The position numbers were made by a program, and so were the translations under genes. A stretch of 64,000 nt of DNA from an uncultured Candidatus Saccharibacteria bacterium (GTDB taxonomy: Bacteria; Patescibacteriota; Minisyncoccia; Phycocordibacterales; UBA9973): NCBI GenBank assembly GCA_964362545.1, contig CAYIEM010000001.1, positions 17,424 to 81,423 on the forward strand, read 5' to 3'. Position 1 is the stretch's first letter; every line of letters begins with the position of its first letter. Under the pieces are notes generated by a model. It had not been told where the DNA came from. It searched no databases and saw only the letters and a list, made by a program, of their open reading frames with translations. Of the stretch, positions 531 through 53,643 are shown in pieces.

Positions 531-3524
531 TTACTCAGATAATATATTGATAAGTCGGTTTTTCACGTAAATCACCTTTTTTATATTTTTGCCGATGTAT
601 TTTAAGACATTCTTGTCGGTCATGGCCTTGGCCTTCACATCATCCTCTCCATCACTATCTTCTATCATAACCTCAGCTCGCCATTTGCCATTTATTTGGA
701 CTACGATTTTGATTTCGTCATCTCTTATCAAACTCTCGTCCCACTTCGGCCACTTTGAAAAATGAACGCTTTTCTTCTCTCCTAAGTCGAACCATAAATA
801 TTCAGCCACATGCGGAGCAAACGGAGTTAATATCTGTAAAAATTTCTTGTAATCTTTCGCGTCTATGTTTTCTGCTTTTTCCATTTCCGTGGCAAGTATC
901 ATCATTGCGGAGATAGCTGTATTGAAACGCATGTTTTCTATGTCCTCTGAAACTTTCTTGATGGTTTTGTGTAGAAGTTTTGGAAGAAGAACAGGCAAAG
1001 GATTTTTAAGAGTCGTGGGTCCCCTGTCCTCATGACTCCGAGGGCGAAGACTCGGAAAATCCTTTGCCTGTTCTTCTTTTACTTTGTGCCTAATCCTCCA
1101 AACCTTTTCCACAAACCTTCTTGAGCCAATGATGCTCTCCGTGCTCCATGCTACCGATTCATCAAAGGGCCCCATAAACATTTCATAAATACGTAAAGTG
1201 TCCGCGCCATAAATCCTGACAATATCGTCCGGATTTATCACGTTGCCCAGAGACTTCGACATCTTTACCCCACCTTCTCCTAAGATCATTCCATGAGAAG
1301 TCCTCTTTTGGTATGGCTCTTTCGTCGGCACCAGCTTCAAATCATATAAAAATTTATGCCAGAAACGTGAATATAAAAGGTGTAGCGTCGTATGCTCCAT
1401 ACCTCCGTTGTACCAATCGACTCCACCTGTGCCACCTTCGCTGTGCTTCGGCGAGCCAAGCCAATATTTCAAATTTTTCTTGCTTGCAAACTCTCTGTTG
1501 TTTCTTGGATCCGTGTACCGTAAGTAGTACCAAGAACTTCCCGCCCAGTTGGGCATTGTATCCGTCTCTCTTTTAGCAGGGCCTTTGCACTTCGGACATT
1601 TGATGTTGACCCATTTCGTAATCGCAGCGAGCGGAGATTCTCCATTGTCTGTAGGTTTATAATTTTTCACTTCCGGCAGTTTTACCGGCAGATCTTTTTC
1701 CGGCACCGGTATCCAACCAGCATTCAACTTGGTAGTCGGAGTACCAAATTTGGTACTCCGACTACCAAGTGAGTCTTTCTTCGCGCAATTCTCGCAAAAA
1801 ATTAAAGGTATCGGCTCACCCCAGTATCTTTGCCTTGAAAAAACCCAGTCGCGGAGCTTGAATTTCGTGACAACTTTCCCACCGACAAACTCGGTGATTT
1901 TTTTCTTAGCTTCTGCAGAATATAGACCGTCAAACCTACCAGAATTTGCTAAAATTCCTTCGCCAGCGTAAATACTTCTCTTCCCCTGGAACGTCTCCCA
2001 GTCGCGAAGAGCAGCTTCGTTCAAAATCTTAGATATCTCTTCGGGAGTAAGCCACCTTGGTTCGTGCTTCTCTTTCTCTTCTTCGGATAGTTCCACACGT
2101 TCTCCGTTCTTCAGCTCAAAATATAGATGAGTAAAATGGACAAAACGATTTTCTTTTTTCAGAATATGATAAAACTTCTCGTGAGAACGACATAGTTCCT
2201 TCACAAGTACTGGGTTTAAATATCCGGTTTCCTCCTTTATTTCCCTGATCGCGGATTGTATGGGATCTTCCCCCGCTTCAATTCCGCCGGTTACAAATGT
2301 AATCCAATTTCCCTTCTTCCAAAACAAGATCAGGTATTTCGCCTCCGACCAATGCTTAACGATTGCATGTATGGCATTTCTCTCGACAAAAGGCAATCCT
2401 TCTTTTGGCCTATCGGTCTCACTAATATAGAACGGCTCAATAACTTCCTTTATCGTCAAATCGTATTTCCTCGCAAACTCATTATCTCTCCCATCATGCG
2501 CGGGAACAGCCATTAATGCACCCGTGCCATAATCTGCCAAAACATAATCGGAAACCCAAACAGATATCTCCTCATTGTTTGCCGGATTGATTGCTTTAAT
2601 TCCTTTCAGCTCCACTCCTGTTTTCTCTTTTTTGTCATCTGTCCTGTCAATCTCTGTTTTTCCCTTCGATTTTTTTACATATTCCGAAACTTCGTTCCAG
2701 TTGGTAATTTGTGATTTTAAATTTCCAACCATAGAATGTTCCGGCGCTAGTACCAAATACGTCGCTCCGAAAAGCGTATCTGCTCGGGTAGTAAAAACTT
2801 TGATTCGCAACTCTTGATCTTTAATTGCAAACTCGATTTCACTCCCTTCAGACTTCCCTATCCAATTCCTCTGCTGAATTTTTATTTTTTCCAAATAATT
2901 AACATCATCCAAGTCCTTATGAAGCCTGTCCGCGTATTTAGTGATCGCCAGCATCCATTGCTCTTTTTCACGCTTTTCCGTATCGCCACCACAACGTTCA
3001 CACTTGCCGTTCACAACTTCTTCGTTTGCGAGCCCTATCTTACAAGAAAGGCACCAATTTATATAAGACCTGGCCTTGTACGCCAATCTTTTTTTAAAAA
3101 ATTGCAAAAAAATCCATTGAGTCCATTTGTAATACTTTGGATCGGTAGTATTTATCTCTCGCGACCAATCAAAAGAAAAACCAAGCGCTTTAAGCTGTCT
3201 TCTGAACGTATCAGTGTTTTTTTTAGTAACGACACTGGGTTTCTTGCCGGTTTTTATAGCATAGTTCTCAGTAGGAAGACCGAAGGCATCCCAGCCGATC
3301 GGATACAATACATTATAACCCTCCATTCGGCGCTTGCGAGAAATGATATCCATGGCAGTGTTGCTCCTGATATGTCCAACATGCATTCCATCGCCAGAAG
3401 GGTACGGAAATTCAATTAGAGAATAAAATTCCTTGCCTTTGCCATTCTTCGCTTGATAAATTTTTTTCTTTTCCCATTCTTTTTGAATATTTTTTTCGAT
3501 TCTAGCGTGATTATATTCTTTCAT
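531..3524 (-). CDS. leuS: Leucyl-tRNA synthetase with an inserted Nudix hydrolase domain
   Basis: 997 aa. HIGH-type motif HVGH, KMSKS, CP1 editing hallmark TTRADTLFGATY and GTGALMAVPAHDGRD, C-terminal anticodon-binding region. Residues ~375-510 form a Nudix fold with the box GGIEAGEDPIQSAIREIKEETGY, inserted between the KYDLTIKEVI and GEGILANSGRFDGL segments. Confidence 0.9.
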   Translation of the reverse strand: MKEYNHARIEKNIQKEWEKKKIYQAKNGKGKEFYSLIEFPYPSGDGMHVGHIRSNTAMDIISRKRRMEGYNVLYPIGWDAFGLPTENYAIKTGKKPSVVTKKNTDTFRRQLKALGFSFDWSREINTTDPKYYKWTQWIFLQFFKKRLAYKARSYINWCLSCKIGLANEEVVNGKCERCGGDTEKREKEQWMLAITKYADRLHKDLDDVNYLEKIKIQQRNWIGKSEGSEIEFAIKDQELRIKVFTTRADTLFGATYLVLAPEHSMVGNLKSQITNWNEVSEYVKKSKGKTEIDRTDDKKEKTGVELKGIKAINPANNEEISVWVSDYVLADYGTGALMAVPAHDGRDNEFARKYDLTIKEVIEPFYISETDRPKEGLPFVERNAIHAIVKHWSEAKYLILFWKKGNWITFVTGGIEAGEDPIQSAIREIKEETGYLNPVLVKELCRSHEKFYHILKKENRFVHFTHLYFELKNGERVELSEEEKEKHEPRWLTPEEISKILNEAALRDWETFQGKRSIYAGEGILANSGRFDGLYSAEAKKKITEFVGGKVVTKFKLRDWVFSRQRYWGEPIPLIFCENCAKKDSLGSRSTKFGTPTTKLNAGWIPVPEKDLPVKLPEVKNYKPTDNGESPLAAITKWVNIKCPKCKGPAKRETDTMPNWAGSSWYYLRYTDPRNNREFASKKNLKYWLGSPKHSEGGTGGVDWYNGGMEHTTLHLLYSRFWHKFLYDLKLVPTKEPYQKRTSHGMILGEGGVKMSKSLGNVINPDDIVRIYGADTLRIYEMFMGPFDESVAWSTESIIGSRRFVEKVWRIRHKVKEEQAKDFPSLRPRSHEDRGPTTLKNPLPVLLPKLLHKTIKKVSEDIENMRFNTAISAMMILATEMEKAENIDAKDYKKFLQILTPFAPHVAEYLWFDLGEKKSVHFSKWPKWDESLIRDDEIKIVVQINGKWRAEVMIEDSDGEDDVKAKAMTDKNVLKYIGKNIKKVIYVKNRLINILSE

Positions 3525-8094: not shown

Positions 8095-8937
8095 TTATTC
8101 CAATATCTCAAAATCACTTCCTGGACTTTCTCCTCGGGGTTGTTGCCTGTTGCGGTAACGAATGTAGTATGCTGCGCCTGCACCGATTCCAGTGAGAACA
8201 ATTAGTCCGACAACGCTAGACCATAGATTATTCGCTGTATCCAAATCGTTCTCGATAACCTCTGCTAATAAATTTTCAGCCGGTATCTCCATTTCTTTTT
8301 TTGGCAATTCTTCTATTGGTAAAACTTGCTTTTCTTTTTTGATAGAAACTTGAACATCTTTCTTTGGAGCATCCACAGTTTTGGGTATTTTTATTGAAGC
8401 AGGGCTCGGAGTTGGAGTTTTAATCGGTTCGATAATTTTATTCTCCATCCCTGGAGTAGGCGAAGCGGCAACCCAAAAATTTACTTTTCTTTGTAGAGAT
8501 TTACCATCTCCTTTAGCCCCCAAGGAAGAATTGTAAACATATTGATCAATAATATTTAAATCTTTGTCTTTGAGCGCCAAAGTTTCCCCACTATTGCCTA
8601 ACGAGAAAGTCGAATCGAAGATAGTTCCAGAAAAACTAGGCCAATCTGCCCTAAATTTAACCGGATTAGAAGCAATCACCGCATAGCTCTGCGCCTCGAT
8701 ATTTTGATTTCCCTGAAACAAAATGAGTTTGTGATTCGTGTCCGCTTCAAAAAATCTATAAGATGCTAAGTCCACTGACACATTCCCATTATTGAATATT
8801 TCGATCCACTCTCTACCATCGTCGGTACCTGTCTTTAGATCATACATTACTTCGTTTATCAAGAGTTCGGCCTGCGCTAGATTGAAAGAAAAAAATGCAA
8901 TAAGTCCTAAATGAAATAAAATTGTTTTCCTAAACAT
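8095..8937 (-). CDS. Membrane-anchored lamin-tail-domain (LTD) protein
   Basis: Signal peptide (MFRKTILFHLGLIAFFSFNLAQA), LTD signature LLINEVMYD...GREWIEIFNNGNVSVDLASY...GETLAL, Pro/Thr linker, C-terminal TM helix plus basic tail. Confidence 0.6.
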   Translation of the reverse strand: MFRKTILFHLGLIAFFSFNLAQAELLINEVMYDLKTGTDDGREWIEIFNNGNVSVDLASYRFFEADTNHKLILFQGNQNIEAQSYAVIASNPVKFRADWPSFSGTIFDSTFSLGNSGETLALKDKDLNIIDQYVYNSSLGAKGDGKSLQRKVNFWVAASPTPGMENKIIEPIKTPTPSPASIKIPKTVDAPKKDVQVSIKKEKQVLPIEELPKKEMEIPAENLLAEVIENDLDTANNLWSSVVGLIVLTGIGAGAAYYIRYRNRQQPRGESPGSDFEILE

Positions 8938-8953
8938 ATGCTATAATAATAAC

Positions 8954-9973
8954 ATGAATAAGATAGACTTCTTGGCGATCGGGGACACAGTGATAGACGC
9001 CTTTATTAAGTTGAAAAAAGCCGATATTCTAGGTGAACCGGACAAGCCAGGATACGAGATTGCTCTGCCTTTCGGAGAAAAAGTGGAATATGAGGACGTT
9101 TTCGTGATTCCGGCTGTAGGCAATGCGGCGAACGCGGCTATTGCCGCCGCGCGACTTGGGCTATCAACAGCAATCGTTACAAACCTAGGCGATGACCGCG
9201 AGGGAGAAGATTGCCTGAAAGAATTGAAGCGCAGCATGGTCAACACCGAGTTGGTAAAAATTAACAGCGGCAAGAAAACCAATTATCACTATGTGCTGTG
9301 GTATGGCGCGGAACGCACGATTTTAATCAAACACCAAGATTATGACTATACGATGCCCGACGTGGGTTCGCCTTCCTGGCTTTATTTTAGTTCTGTAAAT
9401 GAGACCGCCTTCCCTTTCCATTATGTAATCGCCGATTATTTAGATTCTCATCCGGAAATAAATTTCACATTTCAACCGGGCAAATTTGAAATTAAGCTCG
9501 GATACGAAAAAATGGAACGCTTTTACCGCCGCGCGAAAATCTTTTTCTGCAACGTAGAAGAGGCAGAAAAAATTTTAGGATTGCAGAGTATAGGCGAGAG
9601 GCACGAGAATCCGACAGAGGGCGTAAAAGATTTACTCGCAAAAATGCATGATCGGGGTCCCGAGATAGTCGTTATTACCGACGGGCCGAAAGGCGCTTAT
9701 GCTTTCGACGGCAAAGAATACCTTTTCATGCCGATTTATCCGGATCCTAAACCGCCCTACTCACGTACCGGGGCGGGTGATGCCTTTGCTTCGACGACCA
9801 CCTCGGCACTTGCCTTAGGTAAAACTCTACCTGACGCCTTGGCTTGGGGAGGCATCAACTCCATGGCTGTGGTACAACAAGTGGGCGCCAACGTCGGCCT
9901 CCTCTCTCGTAAAAAGCTGGAAGAATATCTCAAAAACGCGCCGGAGGGTTATAAACCAAAAAAGTTGACTTAG
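8954..9973 (+). CDS. PfkB-family carbohydrate/nucleoside kinase
   Basis: 339 aa, ribokinase-like fold with anion-hole motif TGAGDAF near C-terminus and N-terminal GDTVID-type motif. Confidence 0.75.
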   Translation: MNKIDFLAIGDTVIDAFIKLKKADILGEPDKPGYEIALPFGEKVEYEDVFVIPAVGNAANAAIAAARLGLSTAIVTNLGDDREGEDCLKELKRSMVNTELVKINSGKKTNYHYVLWYGAERTILIKHQDYDYTMPDVGSPSWLYFSSVNETAFPFHYVIADYLDSHPEINFTFQPGKFEIKLGYEKMERFYRRAKIFFCNVEEAEKILGLQSIGERHENPTEGVKDLLAKMHDRGPEIVVITDGPKGAYAFDGKEYLFMPIYPDPKPPYSRTGAGDAFASTTTSALALGKTLPDALAWGGINSMAVVQQVGANVGLLSRKKLEEYLKNAPEGYKPKKLT

Positions 9974-10034: not shown

Positions 10035-10205
10035 ATGGCTATAGAATCAACTCCCGAAAGTAAAAAAGACCTGCTGGAGAGAATAAATGTAGAAATACAA
10101 ATGTACGAGGATGAAATAAAGAAGAGAGAAAGTAGAGGAGAAGATGTTTCGCACCTTAGAGTAAGCTTAGAAAGTTTAAGAGAACAGGCTGGAAAACTAA
10201 AATAA
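10035..10205 (+). CDS. Hypothetical 56-aa coiled-coil protein
   Basis: Hand-translated ORF not in track: MAIESTPESKKDLLERINVEIQMYEDEIKKRESRGEDVSHLRVSLESLREQAGKLK*. Followed 30 nt later by an intrinsic terminator. No clear SD. Confidence 0.25.
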   Translation: MAIESTPESKKDLLERINVEIQMYEDEIKKRESRGEDVSHLRVSLESLREQAGKLK

Positions 10206-10358: not shown

Positions 10359-11075
10359 CGCGTTGTTGTCCGCGCTGTCTTCGTTAGCATCCTTAAACTT
10401 CAGCCATTCCTTTACAAAATCTCCAAAATCCAACTTGGAGCTAAAGTATTCTGGAAATTCCGATACGTCAATAATTTTGCTTTCTACCCTACTGACCCCA
10501 GCGAGATCCAAGTAACTGGAATATCTATATTCGCTCAGGTATTTTTCCGATTCATGCAGATTTTTAATTCCATTCTCTTTCCACTCAGGGTCGATTAATT
10601 TAACTGGATTTAAGTTTATATAAGCAAAAAGATATTTCAAATATTCGTCTTTCGTCACATGCTTCGCCTTAAAAGTACCTTGGAAAAGCGAACCATTTCT
10701 GTCGTTCTTCTTGTTGAAATACATCGTGTAAGCTGTTTGCAATTTTTGCATGAACTTACTAACCCCATTGTCTACCCTCTCTTTAATCAATAAATGAAAA
10801 TGGTTTGGCATCAAACAAAATGCGCCTATACTAACCAATGTTTCTTTTCTATCCATTTGAAAAATCTCGGACAAGGTTAAACCTTGTCTTAACTGGTCGC
10901 CAATATCCACCCTTTCGTAACTGTTGCATGAGTAAAGCAGAACCAGAAAACGCGAGTAATCATTCGCGTTTGTAAAAATTTTCCTTTTATCAGTACCTCT
11001 GTTATATAGATGGTAATATTCGCCTATTGAGAATTCCAAGTTTCTTGTCATGCATACATGATAACTAAAAAACAA
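10347..11075 (-). CDS. IS200-like / REP-associated tyrosine transposase (Y1 HUH, COG1943)
   Basis: EYYHLYNRG...DYSRFLVLL...AFCLMPNHFHLLIKE (HUH motif)...MQKLQTAYTMYFNKKNDRNGSLFQGTFKAKHV...YINLNPVK. Start may be the internal MTRNLEF. Confidence 0.75.
   Translation of the reverse strand: MFFSYHVCMTRNLEFSIGEYYHLYNRGTDKRKIFTNANDYSRFLVLLYSCNSYERVDIGDQLRQGLTLSEIFQMDRKETLVSIGAFCLMPNHFHLLIKERVDNGVSKFMQKLQTAYTMYFNKKNDRNGSLFQGTFKAKHVTKDEYLKYLFAYINLNPVKLIDPEWKENGIKNLHESEKYLSEYRYSSYLDLAGVSRVESKIIDVSEFPEYFSSKLDFGDFVKEWLKFKDANEDSADNNADKV
10870..10888. repeat. REP-like palindrome copy 2, inside the transposase coding sequence
   Basis: Exact 19-mer. Encodes RQGLTLS in-frame within the tnp ORF. Confidence 0.8.
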
Positions 11076-11100: not shown

Positions 11101-12099
11101 CGGTTTATTTCGATCGAGGATTTTATGCGCTGCTTTTTGGATGTCCTTCACCCCCATTCCGTAATGCTCGATGAGTTCGTCGGGTGTACCGGACTGGCCG
11201 AATTTGTTTTGCACCCCGATGAATTCCATCGGCACCGGGTAATTTTGCGCGAGCACCTCGGCAACTACGCTCCCCATGCCGCCGGAAACTTGGTGTTCTT
11301 CGACTGTAATAATCGCTTTGCACTCTTTTGCCAAAGCTATGATGGCTTCGTCGTCTGTCGGCACGATTGATGACAGATTCATTACTTTAGTTTTTACACC
11401 TTCCGTCTCCAATTCTTTAGCCGCGAGCATCGCGCGGTGAACAAGCGCGCCGGTGGCGATGATTCCGACATCTGCTATCCCGACATCCGGAATCCAAAAT
11501 ACCCGCGCCTTGCCTATTTCAAAAGGAGTTTCTTCAGTAGTTATGATAGGTGTCTTCTCTCGAGCCAGACGCAGGTATGCCGGCTTTTTGGTTTTAGCGA
11601 GAACAAGCGTCACCTTTTTTGCCTCTATGCTATCGCACGGGCTAAGCACATCCATATTGGGAAGCACTCGCATCAGCGCGATGTCTTCAAGCGCTTGGTG
11701 CGTGCCACCATCAGGACCCACAGAAATACCCGCGTGCGAACCGACTATCACCACCTTTCTGTCGTTGTAAGCAATCGTCGTCCTTATTTGTTCCCAATTG
11801 CGCCCTGGAGAAAACATCGCGTAAGAAGAACAAAAAGGAATTTTACCCATAGCGGCCATCCCCGAAGCCACAGTCACCAAATTCTGCTCCGCCACACCTA
11901 CTTCAATAAATCTCTCCGGAAATTTTTCTTTGAAAAAATGCATTTGCGTAGACTCCGTCAAATCCGCGCAAAGCGCCACCACATTTTTATCCGCCTCTCC
12001 TGCCAACACGAGTCCCTGCCCGAAACCTTTGCGAATAGGCGCCTGTTCGCAGTCTTGATTGAAAATCTTCGGATTTAATTTTAATGCTGGGTTTAACAT
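11089..12099 (-). CDS. tkt: Transketolase, C-terminal (pyrimidine-binding) subunit
   Basis: 336 aa. FGQGLVLAGEADKNVVALCADLTEST...IEVGVAEQNLVTVASGMA, typical split-Tkt subunit B. Confidence 0.85.
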   Translation of the reverse strand: MLNPALKLNPKIFNQDCEQAPIRKGFGQGLVLAGEADKNVVALCADLTESTQMHFFKEKFPERFIEVGVAEQNLVTVASGMAAMGKIPFCSSYAMFSPGRNWEQIRTTIAYNDRKVVIVGSHAGISVGPDGGTHQALEDIALMRVLPNMDVLSPCDSIEAKKVTLVLAKTKKPAYLRLAREKTPIITTEETPFEIGKARVFWIPDVGIADVGIIATGALVHRAMLAAKELETEGVKTKVMNLSSIVPTDDEAIIALAKECKAIITVEEHQVSGGMGSVVAEVLAQNYPVPMEFIGVQNKFGQSGTPDELIEHYGMGVKDIQKAAHKILDRNKPDKV

Positions 12100-13218: not shown

Positions 13219-13638
13219 ATGCCACACGTATCAAGCAAAAAATTAAATCCCAAGCTTTTAGAAGAATTATTTGGAAAACTTCTTGCAGTCTTTGGGCAAG
13301 CACAAAACAAAAGATACTTGAAAGAAGTAACACGGGAGCTGTTCACCCGAACAGAAAAAATTATGCTTGCTAAACGCTTGGCTATTGTTCTTATGCTCGC
13401 GAATAATACTCCACAGCATAGGGTTGTAAATATATTGAAAGTCAGCCCAACTACTGTGGCGAAAACATCTCTCGGAATTGAAATCGGCAAGTACGACGCT
13501 ATTCTAAAAATTTCTAAAAAGGAAAAGACTGATATCGAGAAATTAGTATGGAATATTCTCACCGTCGGAGGAATTATGCCTCCAAAAGTAGGAAGAAAGT
13601 ACTGGAGAAAATATTCAAATAATAATACTACTTCCTAG
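13219..13638 (+). CDS. TrpR/YerC-family HTH DNA-binding protein
   Basis: 139 aa. LFTRTEKIMLAKRLAIVLMLANNTPQHRVVNILKVSPTTVAKTS parallels the TrpR/YerC LTPDExxALxxRxxIxxxLL...S.RxIxxxLGVSxATITRGS helix-turn-helix. Confidence 0.55.
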   Translation: MPHVSSKKLNPKLLEELFGKLLAVFGQAQNKRYLKEVTRELFTRTEKIMLAKRLAIVLMLANNTPQHRVVNILKVSPTTVAKTSLGIEIGKYDAILKISKKEKTDIEKLVWNILTVGGIMPPKVGRKYWRKYSNNNTTS

Positions 13639-20335: not shown

Positions 20336-20356
20336 ATTTATAATATTATAACAGAG

Positions 20357-24320: not shown

Positions 24321-24421
24321 TTTTACATCATAGCAAAAATCTGTAATTCTTAATTCTTAATTCTTAATTAGACAATGAGGTAATGCATTGTGTCAATATC
24401 TTTCTATGCTAGAATGTAACG

Positions 24422-25030
24422 ATGGAAGAAGAAATAAAACAAACGGACGGTACTTTAAGTGGAGCTACGGAAAATGTCGAAAAATCTGCCAAGCAGTCCT
24501 TTTGGGAAATTGTGCGTTTTGCGCTCCTGGCTATAGTCATAGTAGTCCCTATAAGGATGTTCATCGCGCAGCCCTTTGTGGTCTCCGGATCTTCTATGGT
24601 ACCAACGTTTGAAGACGGACAATATCTAATAATAGATGAAATATCATACAGACTAAACGACCCACAAAGAGAAGATGTTGTTGTCTTCCGATACCCAAAT
24701 GACACAAAAAAATTCTTCATTAAAAGAATTATTGGGTTGCCTGATGAAATTATTGATATAAAAGGTAGTTCTATTACCGTCACAAACAAAGAACATCCGA
24801 ATGGGCTGAAGCTGGAACAGCCTTATGTCAAAAATACTACAGAAAACAATATACACTTCGAATTAAAAAGTGATGAATATTTTGTGATGGGCGACAACAG
24901 GCCTGCCAGTTCAGATTCCAGATACTGGGGCGCAGTGCCAAGAAAACTTCTAGTTGGAAAGGCCTTTCTAAGACTATTGCCTGTAAACAGAATAAACTTA
25001 TTCCCTGGCAGTTATAAACAAGCAGAATAA
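24422..25030 (+). CDS. lepB: Signal peptidase I
   Basis: GSSMVPTF (catalytic Ser), KRIIGLPD (Lys), GDNRPASSDSRYWG boxes. Confidence 0.85.
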   Translation: MEEEIKQTDGTLSGATENVEKSAKQSFWEIVRFALLAIVIVVPIRMFIAQPFVVSGSSMVPTFEDGQYLIIDEISYRLNDPQREDVVVFRYPNDTKKFFIKRIIGLPDEIIDIKGSSITVTNKEHPNGLKLEQPYVKNTTENNIHFELKSDEYFVMGDNRPASSDSRYWGAVPRKLLVGKAFLRLLPVNRINLFPGSYKQAE

Positions 25031-31397: not shown

Positions 31398-31501
31398 AAA
31401 AAACTAGCCTTCCTAAACTTACAGAGTATTATATCCCATAGTAAAACTTTTAGAAAGTTCTACTATAGGATTATACTCCTAAATGAAAAGCTAGCCAATA
31501 C

Positions 31502-32005
31502 CTATTTTTTTATCTTTTTCGAGTATTCCCTTAAAAGCTCCGAGGAACTTCTCACTTTGCCCCCACGCCCAATATTAAAGACCATTTCAATACCCAATCT
31601 TTCGCACGTTTCTACATCATAATATAAAGAGGAATTCGGATTTCTGGCGTCTTCTTCATTTCTATCTCCCCCATTTGCAAAGACATGCGGTTTGATTTTA
31701 AACAATTCTTTGCTCACGCTCATATTCTTGGGACCTTTCGGATTTCTAGAATGTCCACTAATAATTACCCCATCTACACAAGCCAAAGCTTCTATAATCT
31801 CTTTGCGTTCGTGATCAGGCATAAAGACATGCTTCCTTTTTTGTCTTTTCCAATTATCATTATTTATGATAACAATTAATTTATCTCCCAATTTTTTAGC
31901 TTCCTGAAACATACGAATATGCCCGATATGAAGCGGGTCAAAACCACCGCTGACTGCCACCACTTTTTTATTTTTCCTGTTTTTGTTCTTCTTAGTAAAT
32001 GACAT
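31502..32005 (-). CDS. Cytidylyltransferase-like (HxGH) nucleotidyltransferase domain protein
   Basis: VVAVSGGFDPLHIGHIRMF HIGH-type motif of the CTP/ATP transferase superfamily (TagD/RfaE-II/PPAT-like). Basic N-terminal tail. Confidence 0.5.
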   Translation of the reverse strand: MSFTKKNKNRKNKKVVAVSGGFDPLHIGHIRMFQEAKKLGDKLIVIINNDNWKRQKRKHVFMPDHERKEIIEALACVDGVIISGHSRNPKGPKNMSVSKELFKIKPHVFANGGDRNEEDARNPNSSLYYDVETCERLGIEMVFNIGRGGKVRSSSELLREYSKKIKK

Positions 32006-32064
32006 TTTTTATTTTTATTTCTTTAATTTGCTAGATTTTCTGCGATAGCAGAATTTCTAGCACT

Positions 32065-33861
32065 TTAATACACTTCCTGTTGATAACATTTCTCACAGTA
32101 AACTATTTCTGGTCTGTCTGGTGCATAACCAGTTTTGAATTTCTCATTGCAAGGATTATCTCCATGCTCATGACTTACTGTGTTTTGATAAACACCAGTA
32201 CTGTCTTTCTCTCCCGCGCACATACAGGACCGTTCGTATAAACCTACCTTTAACCTGTCACTTATTCTGCGCTCGTGCCTACATTCACCGCAAATACGTG
32301 GTATCGACAATTTTTCCTTTTTAAAAAATAAAAATTCATTCTCTAGAATTTTATACGGATTTTTACATTCCTTACATTCTACTACTTCTTTTAAAATATT
32401 ATCGCTGACTTCGTTGATTGAATTTTCAAGCTCTGTTGCCTTTTTTGTCATTTTATAGTTGCCCCGGGACACTTCTATCCACGTATATCCTTTTTTCCTT
32501 GCTTCTGCTTCTGTTAGCGAAAAATGCTGCATCGCGACAGTATTGTTGTAACCGAGTGGAGAAAGTTCGGTAGGAAAAAATTCTCCATATTTATAAGTCA
32601 AACCCTGTGAATCTGTGTAAGGCATTTCATCCATGTGTTTTTTTATTTTGGGCACAAGTTTTTCATACTCTTCTTTAGAATATTGTTTGTTTAAAATACA
32701 ATACTGTTTCTTTTTTAAACCAACACAACCAAAGCAGTCTGAAGAACTAAAAAGGTGCGTACAATATTCATTGTTCCTTGAAGATGGCCAGCAACTGCGC
32801 GAGAATTTATTATTGTAAGAATTGTCTCCGCATTCTAAAGTTTCATAATTCATTTCGGTATGATCCCCCCAATTACAAGAATCATAATTATCTTTGTTGC
32901 CCGGAACTTGCATATATTGGCAATAGCGCATATTTTCGCTTTCTCTGATAAGATAACTGTCGTTTACGTTTTTGCAATTAGTGACATAAGATCCGGAAGA
33001 ATTTAAGTTTTTTAAACCCTGAAGATATTTGAAGGGAAAGGTGTTCCAAAAATTTCTGGCTTTTATTCTGGAGGCTTCAATGCTCAAGGCTGTATCAAGA
33101 TTCATTTTTTTCAATTCTTTAAAATATTCCTCCTTTGCGTATTTTTTATTAAAAATACAATATGAAGAATTGCGCAGATTAGCGCAACCGAAACAATTAT
33201 GACACGAAACACAATCCTTGCAAAACCACAAATCCCTGGAATCTGAAGACATTATTGTGAAATAGCACTGATAACAATTTTCTAACCAAAGACATTCGTA
33301 GCAACGCTCGGAATGTTTTACGTGAGAATTATCGACACAATCTTTACAAGAATCTATCCCGTTTCCATACATACAATCTTCAGAATCATTTGAGTTAACA
33401 ATCAAGTAACTATTCTTTACATAAGAAGCATTGAAAACATATGGACTATTGACAATTCCAATATTATTAAAGTTATATACCGGTACAACTTTATTTAATT
33501 CCTCAATTTGGATTAAAAACGGCTTCGTGAAGTCAATATCCACACTATACTTTATTGCATCAAAGTTGTCTCCGAACCATTCTTCTCTGGTCATTATTTT
33601 CCGACCACTTTCTTTTGGATATGAGGAAAAAATCTCTTTGCCTGTCAAAAAATTGACAACTTTGAAAAGTTTGCGCTCATTTCTCCAAGCCAACCTCCTC
33701 TGCGCCCGGCACAAGGGACAAAAAGTTGGTGGCGGCACCTGCATTTTTTCATAAAAAGAAAAATCATCCGGCTCAATGATGAAGTCTTTTTTACAGTTCT
33801 GGCAGTTTTTTGTTTCGTCTTGCATATCTTTTGCTTTTTGCCCTGTGGTGAATTCTAGCAT
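32065..33861 (-). CDS. Cys-rich repeat protein, paralog A (unknown function)
   Basis: 598 aa, about 50 Cys, no signal peptide. True start probably M13 (MQDETKNCQNC, ATG 33823-33825) by comparison with paralogs. Shares N-terminal CQNCKKxFxIEPDDFxFYxxxxVPPP..CP.CR..RR and C-terminal YxPDRPEI(V/I)YCExCY(Q/K)QEVY with paralogs B and C. Confidence 0.5.
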   Translation of the reverse strand: MLEFTTGQKAKDMQDETKNCQNCKKDFIIEPDDFSFYEKMQVPPPTFCPLCRAQRRLAWRNERKLFKVVNFLTGKEIFSSYPKESGRKIMTREEWFGDNFDAIKYSVDIDFTKPFLIQIEELNKVVPVYNFNNIGIVNSPYVFNASYVKNSYLIVNSNDSEDCMYGNGIDSCKDCVDNSHVKHSERCYECLWLENCYQCYFTIMSSDSRDLWFCKDCVSCHNCFGCANLRNSSYCIFNKKYAKEEYFKELKKMNLDTALSIEASRIKARNFWNTFPFKYLQGLKNLNSSGSYVTNCKNVNDSYLIRESENMRYCQYMQVPGNKDNYDSCNWGDHTEMNYETLECGDNSYNNKFSRSCWPSSRNNEYCTHLFSSSDCFGCVGLKKKQYCILNKQYSKEEYEKLVPKIKKHMDEMPYTDSQGLTYKYGEFFPTELSPLGYNNTVAMQHFSLTEAEARKKGYTWIEVSRGNYKMTKKATELENSINEVSDNILKEVVECKECKNPYKILENEFLFFKKEKLSIPRICGECRHERRISDRLKVGLYERSCMCAGEKDSTGVYQNTVSHEHGDNPCNEKFKTGYAPDRPEIVYCEKCYQQEVY

Positions 33862-33876
33862 ATGCTAGAATTCACC
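33847..33876. promoter_or_regulatory. Perfect 30-bp palindrome GGTGAATTCTAGCATATGCTAGAATTCACC
   Basis: Self-complementary over all 30 nt. Centred on the annotated ATG of paralog A, about 21 nt upstream of the more likely start. Confidence 0.5.
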
Positions 33877-33894
33877 GCGCTTAAATGTCATTCC

Positions 33895-35610
33895 TCAGTA
33901 TACTTCTTGTTTGTAACAACTTTCGCAATACACTATTTCGGGTCGGTCGGGAGAGTAGGAAGTCTCTATTGCTATATCGCATTTGTCACATTTGCGATTA
34001 TAAGTTTGCATTCCATTTAATTGCTTGATACGAGCTCTATCTCGACAAAGCGGGCAATGGCGCGGAATAGGTAAATTAAAACGTTTCAAGAACTGTAATT
34101 CTTTGGGGATTATCTGATAATTCTTCCCACATGCCTCACATTTCAAAATCGCCTTCAAAACATCGTCTGTGACATCTTTAATATGGTCGGGCAATATAAT
34201 GGTAGCATCTAAATATTCTCGTTGGTCAGGATCCCGCCAGGCAAAACCTCTCCCTATGGCCTCTTCTTTAGTGAGCGGAAAGAATTCGTAGGCAGTGGAC
34301 TCATTGTATGGCCAGGGACACAAATCAATTGGTATCTGTCCACCATACTTGTGCTCTAGTCCCCTTCTGTCAATGAAAGGAACTTCCATCATTTGTTTTT
34401 TAATTTTTTCAACCAATGGGAAATATTCTTCTTTGGTATATTGTTTATTAAAAATGCAATATTCGGCCTTTCGCAAACCGACGCAACCAAATAAATATCC
34501 ACATCCATGACAGCCAAAAGTATATTCCGTATCGTGATTGCGATAATTCCAGACGCTGAATTTTACATTGGAAGTATTATACCCCGTCCAAGTCGCCTCA
34601 TAGACCCATTCTGAAGTGGTGCCAAAAGCGGTAAAATCATAACAATTGTGCGCTGGACCCTTCAAAAACAGTTGCGCATATTTCAAATTTTCCGAGTCAG
34701 GAACATAGTACGCGTTATGAACATTCTTTGAATTATAAATATATTCTCCAGAGATGTTGTTGTTATTCCTGCCCAAAGTCGCCCGACGCGGATAATTTAG
34801 TGAAAAAGCATATGCCTGTTTTTTTAGTTTTTGTAAATTTTTTGCAGATCCCAAGTCAAATTCTTTTAATTTTTTAATATACTCTTCTCTTGTAAATTGT
34901 TCATTAAAAATGCAGTAATTTTTATTGCGCAAGCTTGTACAGCCAAAACAATCCCCGCAATTAATCAAATCGCGCGAAAAATAAATGTTTTGACAATTTT
35001 CACAATCCTGCGAGAAAAAAGTCTGGAAACATTTGCGAACATCTACTATCTCATAACAGAGTTCTGGGTCTGCTGAATATGCCACCTCTAGAGAATCTTT
35101 GGTGTTTAAAGCGACATTAGTATACGCAGAATCTTCGCCAGTAATATGTTTAAAACACAGGTAATCATTTTTTTGGAAACTGGCGGCATTGCAATATTCG
35201 CTATTCACCATAGTGCTGTATTCCGTATGAAGCGACGCTTTGGGAACCTCATCCATCAATTCTTTAAATTGTTCAAAAAAGGATCTAGAAAAATCATATT
35301 CCCTGCCGTAACTTTTCGGATCCCATTTGTCACCCCACCAAATATCTTGTTTATATACTTTATACGGTAAATCCGGATGGTAGAACGTGATAATATTCTC
35401 TCCGGTAAAATCACATTTGCGTTTGTATAATATCCTATAACCGTACCAAGCCATTCTGCGAAGCAACCTGCAATGCGGGCACCACACGGGAGGCGGCACT
35501 TTCATCTGCTCATAAAATCCAAAATCGTCTGGTTCAATAATGAAGTTTTTTTTACAGTTTTGACATTGTTTAGTTTCACTTTGTGTATTCATTTTGTCGT
35601 TTTGCAACAT
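33895..35610 (-). CDS. Cys-rich repeat protein, paralog B (unknown function)
   Basis: 571 aa. Likely start M7 (MNTQSETKQCQNC). Internal repeats CxNCxxIYFSRDLINCGDCFGCTSLRNKNYCIFNEQFTREEY and CHGCGYLFGCVGLRKAEYCIFNKQYTKEEY. Confidence 0.5.
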   Translation of the reverse strand: MLQNDKMNTQSETKQCQNCKKNFIIEPDDFGFYEQMKVPPPVWCPHCRLLRRMAWYGYRILYKRKCDFTGENIITFYHPDLPYKVYKQDIWWGDKWDPKSYGREYDFSRSFFEQFKELMDEVPKASLHTEYSTMVNSEYCNAASFQKNDYLCFKHITGEDSAYTNVALNTKDSLEVAYSADPELCYEIVDVRKCFQTFFSQDCENCQNIYFSRDLINCGDCFGCTSLRNKNYCIFNEQFTREEYIKKLKEFDLGSAKNLQKLKKQAYAFSLNYPRRATLGRNNNNISGEYIYNSKNVHNAYYVPDSENLKYAQLFLKGPAHNCYDFTAFGTTSEWVYEATWTGYNTSNVKFSVWNYRNHDTEYTFGCHGCGYLFGCVGLRKAEYCIFNKQYTKEEYFPLVEKIKKQMMEVPFIDRRGLEHKYGGQIPIDLCPWPYNESTAYEFFPLTKEEAIGRGFAWRDPDQREYLDATIILPDHIKDVTDDVLKAILKCEACGKNYQIIPKELQFLKRFNLPIPRHCPLCRDRARIKQLNGMQTYNRKCDKCDIAIETSYSPDRPEIVYCESCYKQEVY

Positions 35611-35635
35611 ATTTGAATATTCTCATTCTATAATT

Positions 35636-35935
35636 CTATAGAATATTAGAATAGTTATTCATAAATTTATAAGAAAAGGGTTCCGCGTATTTTTCTAAAA
35701 CAATTCTCTCGTATTTATCTAGCTTATCAAATCCTAGAATAAAATTCTTAACCACATTCCATTCTTCTCTCCCAGCAGGAATTATATCTCTAAAATTTAA
35801 TATTTTATTTACAATGTCTAATGAACGAATCTGAGCATTTTGCGCGGCCTCTATTTTCCCAGAATCTAAAAAGGAAAACATTCTTCTGATTTCCGGATAT
35901 AAGTTTGCCATATAAAAAAGCGAATCTTTTTTCAT
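35636..35935 (-). CDS. Hypothetical 99-aa protein interposed in Cys-rich paralog cluster
   Basis: Co-directional and tightly spaced. No homology recognised. Confidence 0.4.
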   Translation of the reverse strand: MKKDSLFYMANLYPEIRRMFSFLDSGKIEAAQNAQIRSLDIVNKILNFRDIIPAGREEWNVVKNFILGFDKLDKYERIVLEKYAEPFSYKFMNNYSNIL

Positions 35936-35980
35936 AATTTTCTATTCTAATATTCTATAGAATTATAGAATACTTTCCCC

Positions 35981-36352
35981 TTACTTCTTCAAATCAATAA
36001 ACTTATGAATAATCTCCCTGGCTTTTTTCATTATCTCTTCATTGCCTATATTCCTGGAGCGGTTGCCAAAATTTGGTTTTATGTTAACCATGGAATCGAA
36101 CTCCAAAGCCCCATTCGGATTTTCCTCAAAGCGAATATTGAAACCCCAAATATCTTCAAATTTTGAACCAGTACCCGTCAACAACTCAGAACCCTCGATA
36201 TGATAGTCACCGCCTAAAGCAACTCTGCCAATCTCTATATCGACAGCCCCTTTTATCATAGTTCCATACCAAAAATCCGCCAATCTCTTTACCTCCTCTA
36301 TAAAAATTTTATGGTCTAGAATCGTTATCTTCGTATCCATATTTGTGAGCAT
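35981..36352 (-). CDS. Hypothetical 123-aa protein interposed in Cys-rich paralog cluster
   Basis: Co-directional and tightly spaced. No homology recognised. Confidence 0.4.
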   Translation of the reverse strand: MLTNMDTKITILDHKIFIEEVKRLADFWYGTMIKGAVDIEIGRVALGGDYHIEGSELLTGTGSKFEDIWGFNIRFEENPNGALEFDSMVNIKPNFGNRSRNIGNEEIMKKAREIIHKFIDLKK

Positions 36353-36384
36353 TTTAGCACGATTCTAGCTTGATTGAAAGAATG

Positions 36385-38097
36385 CTAGTACACCTCCTGC
36401 TGATAACACTTTTCGCAATAGATTATTTCTGGACGGTCGGGTGTATAAGAAGTTTTGAATTTATTATCGCATCCTTCTTTCATGCAAGACCTTTCCCAAA
36501 GTTTTAACGGATTTCTTAGTTTCAAACGTTCATAATGCCTGCAGTTTGGACAAAGTCTCGGCAACGGCAAGTTCATTCTCTTGTAAAATTTAAGCTCTTC
36601 AGAAACTATTTTAAATGCCTCGGTACATTGATCTTTGCATTTGCCTCCGTGGCTACAGGCTATGACCTTGCTTATTATGTCGTCTGAAACATCTTTTATA
36701 TTGTCAGGTATATCTTCGTTTTCTATGTCTATTTTATAATTCCTAACCTCTCTATCTTGCCACAGGTATCCCTTCGCTAAAGCCTCTTCCTTAGTCAGCG
36801 GAAAATATTCTTGCGCGATAGTTTCGTTATAAGCAAACGGTGAAAGTTCTGAGGGAAAAAATTCACCGTATTTGTAAACTATTTCTCTCTTGTCTATGTA
36901 AGGCATTTCCTCCATGTGTTTGATAATTTTTGGCAACAATTGTTCATATTCTTCCTTGGTATATTGTTTGTTTAGGATACAATAACTTTTCTTTCGTAAA
37001 CCTTCACAACCGAAGATATTTGAACAATCATGACACTCTTCGTTATAACGAGAGTCGTGATTTGAGTGATTCTTTACACCAAAAGCCGTATTCGAACCAC
37101 TAAAACCATGGGCTATTTCATATAGTAACTCAGCGCCAAAACCTTGAAATGATGTGTCATAACAATCTTTTGATTTATTTCTACAGAAAAAAAGATACTT
37201 CGAATCTTCCACTTGTCGAGAACTGAAAGCATTGTGGGTGTTGCGGGCTTCAAACAAATCGTCTCCAGTAGAATTAACAGATTTATAAACCTGAGCATAG
37301 CGACGAGGTATGGTCAACGCCAAGTCGTATAATCTCTTTCTAATATCAGCATGAGATTTTAAACCGCCTAAGTTGATTTTTTCTATAAATTTTTGATATT
37401 CTTCTTTTGAAAATTGTTGGTTAAAAACATTGTGTTGTTTGTTGCGTAAGCCCACACACCCGAAACAACTTAAACAATTCTTGCAATCTAGAAGATACCA
37501 GCTGTCTACACAATCTTCAGAATAAGAACTGAAAAATAATTTATTGGTCCTGGCGCACTCAAAAAGCTCATAACTAAATTCCAATTTTTCAGAAAACGCC
37601 ACATCCAGAGAGTCTTTGGAATCAAACAATTGATTTGCGAAATAAACTCTTTCGTTATTGATACCTCCAAATACAAGGTAGCATTCCTTCATGTCAAGCC
37701 CATAATTGCAATACTCACTAGAAATGAAATTTGTTTGATACATATTTTCTCTAGGCACTGCAACCTGAAGCGCGCGAAATTGGGTAAAAAATGGTACAGA
37801 AAAATCATGTTCTTTCCCATAACTTAAAGGGTCCCACTTATCGGAAAGCCAACACTCACGACAATAGATGGTATATGGTTTGTCTTTGGAATAAATAGTT
37901 AGAAGATTTTTTTTACACATACCACATTCACGTCTATAAAAAACCCTATTATTACGGAACAACAATCTTCTTTGAAACCTGCAATCCGGGCAAAATGTCG
38001 GTGGAGGCACTTTTATTTTTTGGTAAAAATTAAAATCATCCGGTTCGATAGTAAAATCTTTCTTGCAATTTTGACATACCTTCGTCTCAGAATTCAT
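36385..38097 (-). CDS. Cys-rich repeat protein, paralog C (unknown function)
   Basis: 570 aa. MNSETKVCQNCKKDFTIEPDDFNFYQKIKVPPPTFCPDCRFQRR...CYQQEVY. Same architecture as A and B. Confidence 0.5.
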   Translation of the reverse strand: MNSETKVCQNCKKDFTIEPDDFNFYQKIKVPPPTFCPDCRFQRRLLFRNNRVFYRRECGMCKKNLLTIYSKDKPYTIYCRECWLSDKWDPLSYGKEHDFSVPFFTQFRALQVAVPRENMYQTNFISSEYCNYGLDMKECYLVFGGINNERVYFANQLFDSKDSLDVAFSEKLEFSYELFECARTNKLFFSSYSEDCVDSWYLLDCKNCLSCFGCVGLRNKQHNVFNQQFSKEEYQKFIEKINLGGLKSHADIRKRLYDLALTIPRRYAQVYKSVNSTGDDLFEARNTHNAFSSRQVEDSKYLFFCRNKSKDCYDTSFQGFGAELLYEIAHGFSGSNTAFGVKNHSNHDSRYNEECHDCSNIFGCEGLRKKSYCILNKQYTKEEYEQLLPKIIKHMEEMPYIDKREIVYKYGEFFPSELSPFAYNETIAQEYFPLTKEEALAKGYLWQDREVRNYKIDIENEDIPDNIKDVSDDIISKVIACSHGGKCKDQCTEAFKIVSEELKFYKRMNLPLPRLCPNCRHYERLKLRNPLKLWERSCMKEGCDNKFKTSYTPDRPEIIYCEKCYQQEVY

Positions 38098-38151
38098 CTA
38101 TTTATTATAACAAAACTAGTCAATTTTCCCAGTGTTTGGTACAATTTATTT

Positions 38152-38601
38152 ATGTATATAATATATGCTTTGCTTGGGGCGATCATGGCAAGTTTGGGTA
38201 CCATTTTCGCAAAATTAGGACTTAAGGGAATTGACGCGAACTTACTTACCGCTATTCGCGGCATCGTAATGGCTATCATTGTCTCTATCGCTGCTTTATC
38301 TTTTGGTAAGTTTACTGTAACATCTGTTTCCTCGCTCTCCACGAAACAATGGGTCTTCGTCATTCTTTCGGGACTGGGTGGCGCCTTGTCTTGGATTTTC
38401 TTTTACCAAGCTCTCTCCATAGGTCCGACAGTCGCCGTGACAGTCATAGATAAACTGTCTATCGTCTTTACTGCTATCCTTGCAGTCGTGGTTCTAACAG
38501 AAGGAGTTACTTTGCAAGCAGGAATAGGACTTCTGCTCGTAGTCTTGGGTACGTTACTTGTCGCTATTCCTTGGGAGAAGATACAAAAATTATTTATTTA
38601 A
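38152..38601 (+). CDS. Small EamA-like (4-TM DMT/SMR-like) transporter
   Basis: ATG at 38152 (MYIIYALLGAIMASLGTIFAKLG...). 149 aa, four TM helices. The track's upstream extension overlaps paralog C. Confidence 0.5.
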   Translation: MYIIYALLGAIMASLGTIFAKLGLKGIDANLLTAIRGIVMAIIVSIAALSFGKFTVTSVSSLSTKQWVFVILSGLGGALSWIFFYQALSIGPTVAVTVIDKLSIVFTAILAVVVLTEGVTLQAGIGLLLVVLGTLLVAIPWEKIQKLFI

Positions 38602-44628: not shown

Positions 44629-44697
44629 ATTTTAATAATACCACATTGATAGACAAAAAATCCCCTAAAAGGGGATTTTTTGTCTTATTCTTCTATT

Positions 44698-46344
<1,647 letters not shown>

Positions 46345-53389: not shown

Positions 53390-53609
53390 ATCTTGATGAT
53401 ACTACTTAAATGCAATTTATTCAATTAAAAAAAATATAGAAAAATAAAACATATATCAAACAAACTATTTTAGATAACAATCACGCTCACGCTCATAGTA
53501 ATGAGTTTGCGCGTAACATATAAACATATTAAGCTAACACGTAATTTATTTTTATTTCAAAAAACGAGTTAGATATTTTATTTAAAAATTTCTTGTATTT
53601 TTGTAAGAC

Positions 53610-53643
53610 AAATGAAGGACCCGAGCTCGGACCCTTCATTTGA
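53610..53643. other. Strong GC-rich hairpin in ORF-free AT-rich region (AAATGAAGG-ac-CCGAG/CTCGG-ac-CCTTCATTT)
   Basis: 9-bp + 5-bp stems with a symmetric 2x2 internal loop. Possible terminator or 3' end of an unannotated RNA. Confidence 0.4.

Follow-up and report, generated by a model that had tools for sequence, protein, structure and literature searches.

Composite palindromes at the junctions of a cysteine-rich gene cluster as candidate sites of an ArsR-like regulator in Patescibacteria

The DNA analyzed here, a 64-kb window from an uncultured Candidatus Saccharibacteria bacterium, carries a cluster of five genes, all on the minus strand, with palindromes at several of its gene junctions (positions are those of the window unless a label such as L001, which denotes a related locus, is given). 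Read along the minus strand, the cluster starts with paralog C of a family of cysteine-rich (Cys-rich) proteins (36385-38097), whose initial ATG is preceded at a distance of 6 nt by TGTTATAAT. It continues with a DUF5674 gene (35981-36352; Pfam E = 1.5e-19), which has 123 codons and likely encodes 119 aa from its second ATG, a gene for a conserved four-helix-bundle protein of 99 aa (35636-35935) and the Cys-rich paralogs B (33895-35610) and A (32065-33861; likely start 33825). The Cys-rich paralogs are zinc-ribbon-type proteins of ~570 aa. The 99-aa gene lies between two copies of a composite palindromic element, which are referred to as composite site 1 and composite site 2 and are the main subject of this study.

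The 99-aa protein has 191 counterparts in Patescibacteria at 70-83% identity, in Nomurabacteria/Paceibacteria-type genomes, and the relatives repeat the gene order Cys-rich, DUF5674, 99-aa, Cys-rich. One related locus, L005, is a second assembly of the same strain and has identical junctions. The DUF5674 and 99-aa genes are adjacent in nearly all relatives, usually with a spacing of 0-4 nt, and genes for VirD4/TraG-like ATPases (TrwB_AAD_bind), DnaK and DnaJ adjoin the cluster in relatives. AlphaFold modeled the 99-aa protein as a confident four-helix bundle (predicted local distance difference test score 90.9), for which weak FliS-like matches (TM score 0.75, E 0.06) were the sole fold matches. 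The protein was considered as the regulator of the cluster and rejected because it is a four-helix bundle with no helix-turn-helix (HTH); according to the model, it is not a DNA binder.

Each composite site is built around the 12-mer ATTCTATAGAAT, of which the 64 kb contain two exact copies and no more. One (35633-35644) overlaps the TAG stop codon of the 99-aa gene and the other (35952-35963) is embedded in TATTCTATAGAATTATAGAATA. Both copies had been located correctly in a first-pass annotation of this DNA, which had missed that each 12-mer forms the centre of an element 28-30 bp in length, Y-ATTCTA-nn-ATTCTATAGAAT-nn-TAGAAT-R. The element consists of four hexamers phased at 8 bp, which together form a near-palindrome with ATTCTA-nn-ATTCTA facing TAGAAT-nn-TAGAAT. 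Composite site 1 (35624-35653), at the junction of the 99-aa gene and paralog B, reads C-ATTCTA-TA-ATTCTATAGAAT-AT-TAGAAT-A on the plus strand and matches the 30-bp consensus derived from 127 metagenome sites (see below); its left half forms the last codons and the stop codon of the 99-aa gene. Composite site 2 (35943-35972), at the junction of the DUF5674 and 99-aa genes, contains the same 29-mer in inverted orientation, with ATTCTATAATTCTATAGAATATTAGAATA found on the plus strand at 35625-35653 and on the minus strand at 35943-35971. The 99-aa gene is thus flanked by a perfect inverted repeat of 29 nt (41 nt at 88%; arms 35625-35665 and 35931-35971).

In the direction of the genes, both sites present a hexamer TAGAAT upstream of a start codon. 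The outer TAGAAT of site 2 (35944-35949, minus strand) is -10-like and is followed after 8 nt by the start codon of the 99-aa gene (ATG at 35935). That of site 1 (35625-35630, minus strand) precedes the first ATG of paralog B (35610) by 14 nt and the ATG supported by homology (35592) by 32 nt. The L015 homologue has TAGAAT 21 nt before its ATG and a similar leader, TTGCAAAA.

A third palindrome occupies the junction of paralogs B and A, where GGTGAATTCTAGCATATGCTAGAATTCACC, read directly from the sequence, is a perfect palindrome of 30 nt (33847-33876), as the first-pass annotation had reported. It shares with the composite sites the dyad ATTCTA-N8-TAGAAT, which occurs once in the 30-mer and twice, overlapping, in the composite element. 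Across the whole window, the exact dyad was found at 33852-33871, 35625-35652 and 35944-35971 and nowhere else. Inverted repeats of ~26-30 bp, as in operators of the ArsR/SmtB type, are present at 35624-35653, 35943-35972 and 33847-33876.

It had been pointed out that similar palindromes might be just as frequent in other DNA of this composition. As a class, perfect palindromes of at least 12 nt are indeed not enriched, since the window contains 22 of them compared with 22.2 +/- 4.9 in 200 Markov-1 simulations. The 30-mer and the copies of ATTCTATAGAAT are far beyond chance, and the 30-mer is an outlier because no simulated palindrome exceeded 24 nt. Of the four junction sites that had been proposed, three cannot be attributed to base composition.

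The fourth, at the junction of paralog C and the 123-aa DUF5674 gene (36353-36384), had been credited with related half-sites. This part of the earlier observation did not hold up, as the junction contains no N8 dyad and does not fold better than shuffled sequences do (z = -0.76; 45 of 200 shuffles equally good). Judged by comparison with a related locus, the conserved feature here is a predicted extended -10 element, TGCTAAAAT (36351-36359, minus strand), and not a palindrome. It lies 10 nt before the ATG of the start MDTK (36340), and its counterpart in L001 is TGATAAAAT, followed after 10 nt by ATGGATACA.

Linkage of the composite motif to ArsR-like genes

To follow the element in relatives, 42 genomes were retrieved via the 99-aa protein and searched at up to 6 mismatches. 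The element was found in several of them, with copies mostly within the same cluster. It overlies the stop codon of the 99-aa gene in L009, L014 and L017, precedes DUF5674 in L011 and precedes a Cys-rich gene in L001 and L039. In L015, it is located two genes downstream of the 99-aa gene and immediately upstream of another open reading frame (ORF).

A metagenome scan with the degenerate pattern ATTCTANNATTCNNTAGAATNNTAGAAT returned the composite motif from at least 120 contigs of groundwater bacteria, at a roughly estimated chance frequency of ~9e-13 per position; the counts given below are among the matches listed. At positions left free in the pattern, the 127 distinct sites have a central TATA in 91% and the flanking Y and R in 95% of cases. 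Perfect palindromy over 28 nt was seen in 54 of the 127 sites, and the spacer dinucleotides are complementary in 67 of 127 (21.8 +/- 3.9 expected from shuffles). For 25 of 51 filtered downstream ORFs, the distance from the end of the motif to the ATG is -2 or 5-12 nt. A Pfam scan of 47 downstream ORFs identified winged helix-turn-helix (wHTH) regulators (7), dihydrofolate reductase (DHFR; 6), class I tRNA synthetases (3) and DNA polymerase III delta' (3), with single cases such as TGT, methionine aminopeptidase and others; a further five downstream ORFs are Cys-rich paralogs by sequence.

The motif is closely associated with one type of regulator gene. In 12 contigs, two motif copies lie 248-698 nt apart, and 11 of these 12 pairs enclose a small wHTH gene of 88-122 aa; four of five enclosed proteins that were tested pass the Pfam cut-off for HTH_5 (ArsR family). 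Overall, an ArsR-family winged-helix gene of 88-122 aa is present in 31 of 120 contigs. A motif copy abuts 29 of 32 regulator genes, 10 of which have copies on both sides. The regulator family comprises 1,616 cluster representatives at E <= 1e-10, which the sources name ArsR family or winged helix. The closest solved relative of a motif-flanked regulator is HlyU (phmmer E = 2.5e-5). A representative regulator has ~90 aa and no cysteine, and no metal-site motif was seen when such motifs were sought by eye; as it lacks cysteine, it is unlikely to have a metal-binding thiolate site like those of ArsR/CadC.

In Hainich H52, the closest relative in which a regulator locus was read, the motif flanks the regulator gene (L168 2956-2985 and 3243-3272) and also immediately precedes a Cys-rich paralog (L001 2848-2875). 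The copy at 3243-3272 of L168 belongs to one regulator subfamily in which the last nine codons, ILQFVRIIE (ATT CTA CAA TTC GTT AGA ATT ATA GAA), spell the site; such encoded copies also occur in L048, L050, L071, L113 and L150. In another subfamily, the downstream copy is placed at or just past the stop codon, so the motif copy is not merely a coding constraint. Homologous regulators are flanked by other palindromes. The regulator gene of L008 has the 14-2-14 repeat CATACCTACAAACT-cc-AGTTTGTAGGTATG at 1635-1664 and 1976-2005, and that of L009, which lies directly 3' of a Cys-rich gene, has CATTTTGCAAAATG at about 11049-11064 and 11348-11367. This is what co-evolution of repressors and sites would give, and it suggests a family of putative regulators, each with its own site.

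Predicted promoter elements and the 30-nt palindrome

The start regions of the 53 window genes show a recurrent arrangement. In 18 of the 53, exactly 6 nt separate a hexamer TAnnnT from the ATG, and 11 of these 18 also have the TGn of an extended -10 element. A Shine-Dalgarno core at the usual distance was seen a single time among the same 53 genes. A peak of TAnnnT at the same position was found in 360 genes of related loci. Examples of TAnnnT before an ATG are located at 38098-38112 and 24403-24421. The divergent genes starting at 8937 and 8954 share a spacer of 16 nt (8938-8953) with overlapping -10 boxes, and a second overlapping divergent promoter is found at 20338-20351. From these positions, we infer that most mRNAs of the lineage are leaderless or nearly so and arise from promoters of the extended -10 type. 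The literature searched contained nothing relevant on leaderless promoters in Patescibacteria. Given the TAnnnT peak before ATG and the absence of Shine-Dalgarno cores, the hexamer TAGAAT of the palindromes is likely also a -10 box.

The 30-mer at the B/A junction can be read in the same way. Its CATATG centre coincides with the start of the longest ORF of paralog A (33861). The start 36 nt downstream (33825), which had been favored before, yields MQDETKNCQNCKK, a match to MNSETKVCQNCKK of paralog C. The palindrome had consequently been placed in the 5' leader of paralog A. However, the 30-mer contains an extended -10-like element, TGCTAGAAT (33852-33860, minus strand), which is separated by 26 nt from the likely start codon of paralog A, and if TGCTAGAAT serves as the -10, the palindrome would instead lie mostly upstream of the transcription start. 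A mirror copy of TGCTAGAAT is present on the plus strand (33863-33871), and TGCTAGAAT also precedes the ATG of the gene at 24422 by 6 nt.

Two relatives of the 30-mer were identified in 1.29 Mb of related DNA. In L020, the relative is a perfect palindrome of 36 nt, TGTTGTGAATTTTCGCATATGCGAAAATTCACAACA (9537-9572), and in L134 it is located directly 3' of a Cys-rich gene (10081-10108). Both relatives keep GTGAATT, GCATATGC and AATTCAC, whereas the triplet that forms TAGAAT in the window varies in L020 and L134, mostly with compensation. Because GTGAATT and GCATATGC are kept and TAGAAT is not, the 30-mer may represent a separate site family. Positional conservation of the palindrome was considered and rejected, as the corresponding junctions of relatives are quite different. 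The sequence of the palindrome is not kept there, and relatives other than L003 and L007 have none. The paralog junction of L003 (7020-7049; L007 2814-2843) harbors the four-hexamer palindrome CATTAT-ga-CATTAT-ca-ATAATG-tc-ATAATG, that of L018 has direct repeats and that of L019 is a gap of 2 nt.

In general type, the 30-mer probably resembles the composite sites as a combined promoter and operator, for the same regulator or for a paralogous one. That it is a site of the very regulator that would bind the composite sites is a tentative assignment, recognition by a paralogous regulator is conceivable, and it is doubtful that it acts as an RNA or DNA hairpin. A promoter role of the 30-mer is compatible with all three.

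Candidate repressor sites and competing explanations

We consider it likely that the two composite palindromes combine operator and promoter and are recognized by a conserved, ArsR-like autorepressor whose gene lies outside the window. Because the motif flanks a small gene of ArsR type, the palindromes are most likely repressor sites placed over minimal promoters. A small dimeric winged-helix protein of the ArsR family would bind the dyad and thereby cover the -10 hexamers TAGAAT. When the site is free, RNA polymerase would recognize (TGn)TAnnnT ~6 nt before the ATG and start at or just before the start codon. The bound repressor would shut off its own gene and a dispersed set of genes, including the Cys-rich paralogs, DUF5674 and the 99-aa gene, with DHFR, class I tRNA synthetases and DNA polymerase III delta' as further proposed targets. 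The sequence data show a conserved motif that is linked to the regulator gene and keeps characteristic distances to start codons; protein binding, repression and transcription starts at the composite sites are inferred. The earlier suggestion of a common operator for one regulator is supported for the two composite sites, where the motif recurs and is linked to ArsR genes; for the 30-mer, whose relatives lack TAGAAT, it is tentative, and for the C/123-aa junction it is unsupported.

Several observations weigh against repressor sites of this kind. The loci behind the linkage statistics were chosen by the motif itself. No ArsR-like gene was detected in the 64-kb window by tblastn with six ArsR-like proteins, and in a Pfam scan of ten small window ORFs the sole DNA-binding candidate, an ORF with a match to the Trp-repressor family (13219-13638, PF01371), was below threshold (25.2 vs 27 bits); a cognate regulator gene must therefore lie elsewhere in the genome. 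Most promoters in this DNA are of the extended -10 type, whose TG is missing from the composite sites. The distances from TAGAAT to the likely starts of paralog B (14 or 32 nt) and paralog A (26 nt) are larger than the 6 nt that are the norm. Finally, the palindromic symmetry, including the complementary spacers, is equally predicted by a hairpin model.

The proposed mechanism, a dimeric repressor on a palindrome over a -10 box, is ordinary in kind. Repressors of the SmtB/ArsR family recognize inverted repeats of the 12-2-12 type, one or two per target, which overlap the transcription start or lie close to it (PMC8790569). As in the operators of smtA-smtB, ziaR-ziaA and AzuR-nmtA, a small dimeric winged-helix repressor would be combined here with an inverted repeat of ~26-30 bp, in one or two copies at or close to the putative promoter, beside or within the regulated genes and beside the regulator gene. 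The classical target of SmtB/ArsR is likewise a Cys-rich protein, metallothionein (PMC8790569), but the Cys-rich proteins found here have ~570 aa, are of zinc-ribbon type and are not metallothioneins. Unlike those operators, which have a TGAA-N6-TTCA core as read from printed example sites, the sites described here consist of TTCTA/TAGAA hexamers, four of them in 8-bp phase, and a half-site likely doubles as a -10 box. The representative regulator also differs in being cysteine-free, and its proposed targets include housekeeping genes. It resembles HlyU of Vibrio, a member of the ArsR/SmtB family, in size and in the wHTH fold family, although the similarity is distant. HlyU is an activator or anti-silencer of virulence genes and is not known to sense metals. 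A further parallel is CIRCE/HrcA, a long inverted repeat that is conserved lineage-wide, marks the promoters of the regulator operon and of a particular group of genes and can fold in the mRNA; it differs in its unrelated sequence, its regulator family and its gene set.

Patescibacteria, also known as the candidate phyla radiation (CPR), have tiny genomes with few transcription factors and are mostly uncultured, and to our knowledge almost nothing has been reported on their gene regulation. A literature search on the composite motif returned nothing relevant, and the system therefore appears to be undescribed. It combines a sharply defined motif (at least 120 contigs), a regulator family (1,616 representatives) and a recurring set of targets, and thus offers a concrete candidate regulon that can be tested with one protein of 90 aa and one oligonucleotide of 30 bp. 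In addition, the predicted promoters of this lineage consist essentially of an extended -10 box ~6 nt from the start codon, which bears on how genes are called and start sites predicted in such genomes.

A bolder version of the repressor model would regard the element as a portable cassette of promoter and operator. Its four mirror-symmetric -10 hexamers would support leaderless transcription in either direction and be shut by one cysteine-free ArsR-like protein. New copies would arise or insert at gene junctions such as that of DUF5674 and the 99-aa gene, each wiring another gene into a regulon that would be among the few global ones in such reduced genomes, and the regulator would encode an operator copy in its last nine codons. 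We regard this extension as speculative and rather doubtful.

Alternatively, as had also been suggested before, the palindromes could act as RNA, with hairpins or a long-range duplex serving as RNase III, processing, stability or insulation elements of a polycistronic transcript and no dedicated DNA-binding protein. In a read-through RNA (35600-35990), the two composite copies pair over ~31 bp in both the minimum free energy and the centroid structure (z = -3.2), and strong hairpins are predicted for the 30-mer (-24 kcal/mol, z = -8.4) and for a repeat at 32029-32062 (-17.6 kcal/mol, z = -6.5). The excess of complementary spacers over shuffles and the compensated triplet in the 30-mer family (window, L020 and L134) point in the same direction. 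Against this, most sites are single and located 5-10 nt upstream of the start codons of unrelated genes, and if TAGAAT is a -10 box, the element would not be transcribed from its own promoter. Taken singly, the composite sites form only weak local hairpins (-9 to -10 kcal/mol, z about -2.7), and the spacers of the window copies (TA/AT) are not complementary. Spacer class tracks regulator subfamily, and spacer co-variation was therefore rejected as proof of a hairpin, being confounded with the subfamily. An Rfam search of 31500-38500 gave no match at E <= 1. A terminator function of the palindromes was likewise considered and rejected, since none was found in the terminator scan, they have no U-tracts and the downstream sequence is A-rich or mixed. 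On balance, an RNA role is unlikely.

Similarly improbable is the view that the sites are symmetric core promoters without a specific regulator, in which back-to-back -10 boxes fire both ways and the symmetry is a by-product of the near-symmetry of -10 boxes in an AT-rich genome. It is known that -10 symmetry gives divergent transcription in bacterial promoters (PMC10268837). As in the bidirectional sigma-70 promoters studied by Warman and Grainger (PMC10268837), -10-like hexamers occur on both strands of a pseudo-symmetric, AT-rich element; each palindrome offers a good -10 box (TAGAAT) or extended -10 box (TGCTAGAAT) on either strand, and true overlapping divergent promoters exist in the window (8938-8953 and 20338-20351). 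Unlike in those promoters, the hexamers here are back to back and do not overlap, are duplicated in 8-bp phase and are part of a longer conserved palindrome that is tied to one regulator family. Core promoter symmetry leaves unexplained the four identical hexamers with fixed 8-bp phasing, the Y/R flanks and the central TATA, as well as the near-exclusive linkage to this regulator family. Nor does it account for the symmetry of the 30-mer, which runs past the -10 boxes (GGTGAA...TTCACC). Moreover, all cluster genes are co-oriented, so a second promoter direction would yield antisense RNA only.

Far less probable is a small mobile or recombinogenic repeat, similar to a miniature inverted-repeat transposable element (MITE) or a repetitive extragenic palindrome (REP), or a pair of inverton repeats that hold the 99-aa gene. 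Composite site 2 occupies a gap of 45 nt between the DUF5674 and 99-aa genes, which is at most 4 nt in 25 of 31 relatives. The window copies are identical, inverted 29-mers, and identical 28-mers were found in 10 unrelated metagenome contexts. However, the element has only 28-30 bp, no target-site duplications were seen and neither a transposase nor a recombinase gene caught attention in its vicinity, although no systematic search of the window was made for such genes. The element keeps a fixed distance to start codons and overlaps conserved C-terminal coding sequence of the regulator and of the 99-aa gene. In L005, the one further assembly of the strain, the orientation is unchanged. A phage or mobile origin was rejected, as both motifs had 0 matches in viral contigs. 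A compositional artefact of AT-rich intergenic DNA, with which the chance-level total of palindromes of at least 12 nt and the shuffle-like C/123-aa junction would agree, can practically be dismissed, because the 30-mer surpasses all 200 simulations, the exact N8 dyad is confined to the cluster and the element is kept in at least 120 independent contigs.

Other palindromes of the window

The strong hairpin at 32029-32062, GCTAGAAATTCTGC-tatc-GCAGAAAATCTAGC on the minus strand, had been missed in the first-pass annotation. It is located between paralog A and a cytidylyltransferase-like gene (31502-32005), has arms of GCTAGAA type and no U-tract. The homologue of the cytidylyltransferase-like gene in L074 directly follows a composite motif.

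A perfect palindrome of 44 nt, ACTTGGTAGTCGGAGTACCAAATTTGGTACTCCGACTACCAAGT (1727-1770), is longer than any in the 200 simulations. It forms part of the gene for leucine-tRNA ligase (531-3524; TIGR00396, E = 1e-279), where it encodes ...LGSRSTKFGTPTTK..., and near-identical counterparts are present in Paceibacteria (L019 1236-1277, L021 7822-7863, L024 10774-10815 and L025 10750-10787). A near-palindrome of 34 nt, CAAATGAAGGACCCGAG/CTCGGACCCTTCATTTG, was found at 53609-53642, where no ORF of at least 90 aa is listed. A hairpin resembling a bidirectional terminator, AGACAAAAAATCCCCT..AGGGGATTTTTTGTCT (44651-44685), separates two minus-strand genes, and the protein start of the minus-strand gene at 44698-46326 looks GroEL-like by eye.

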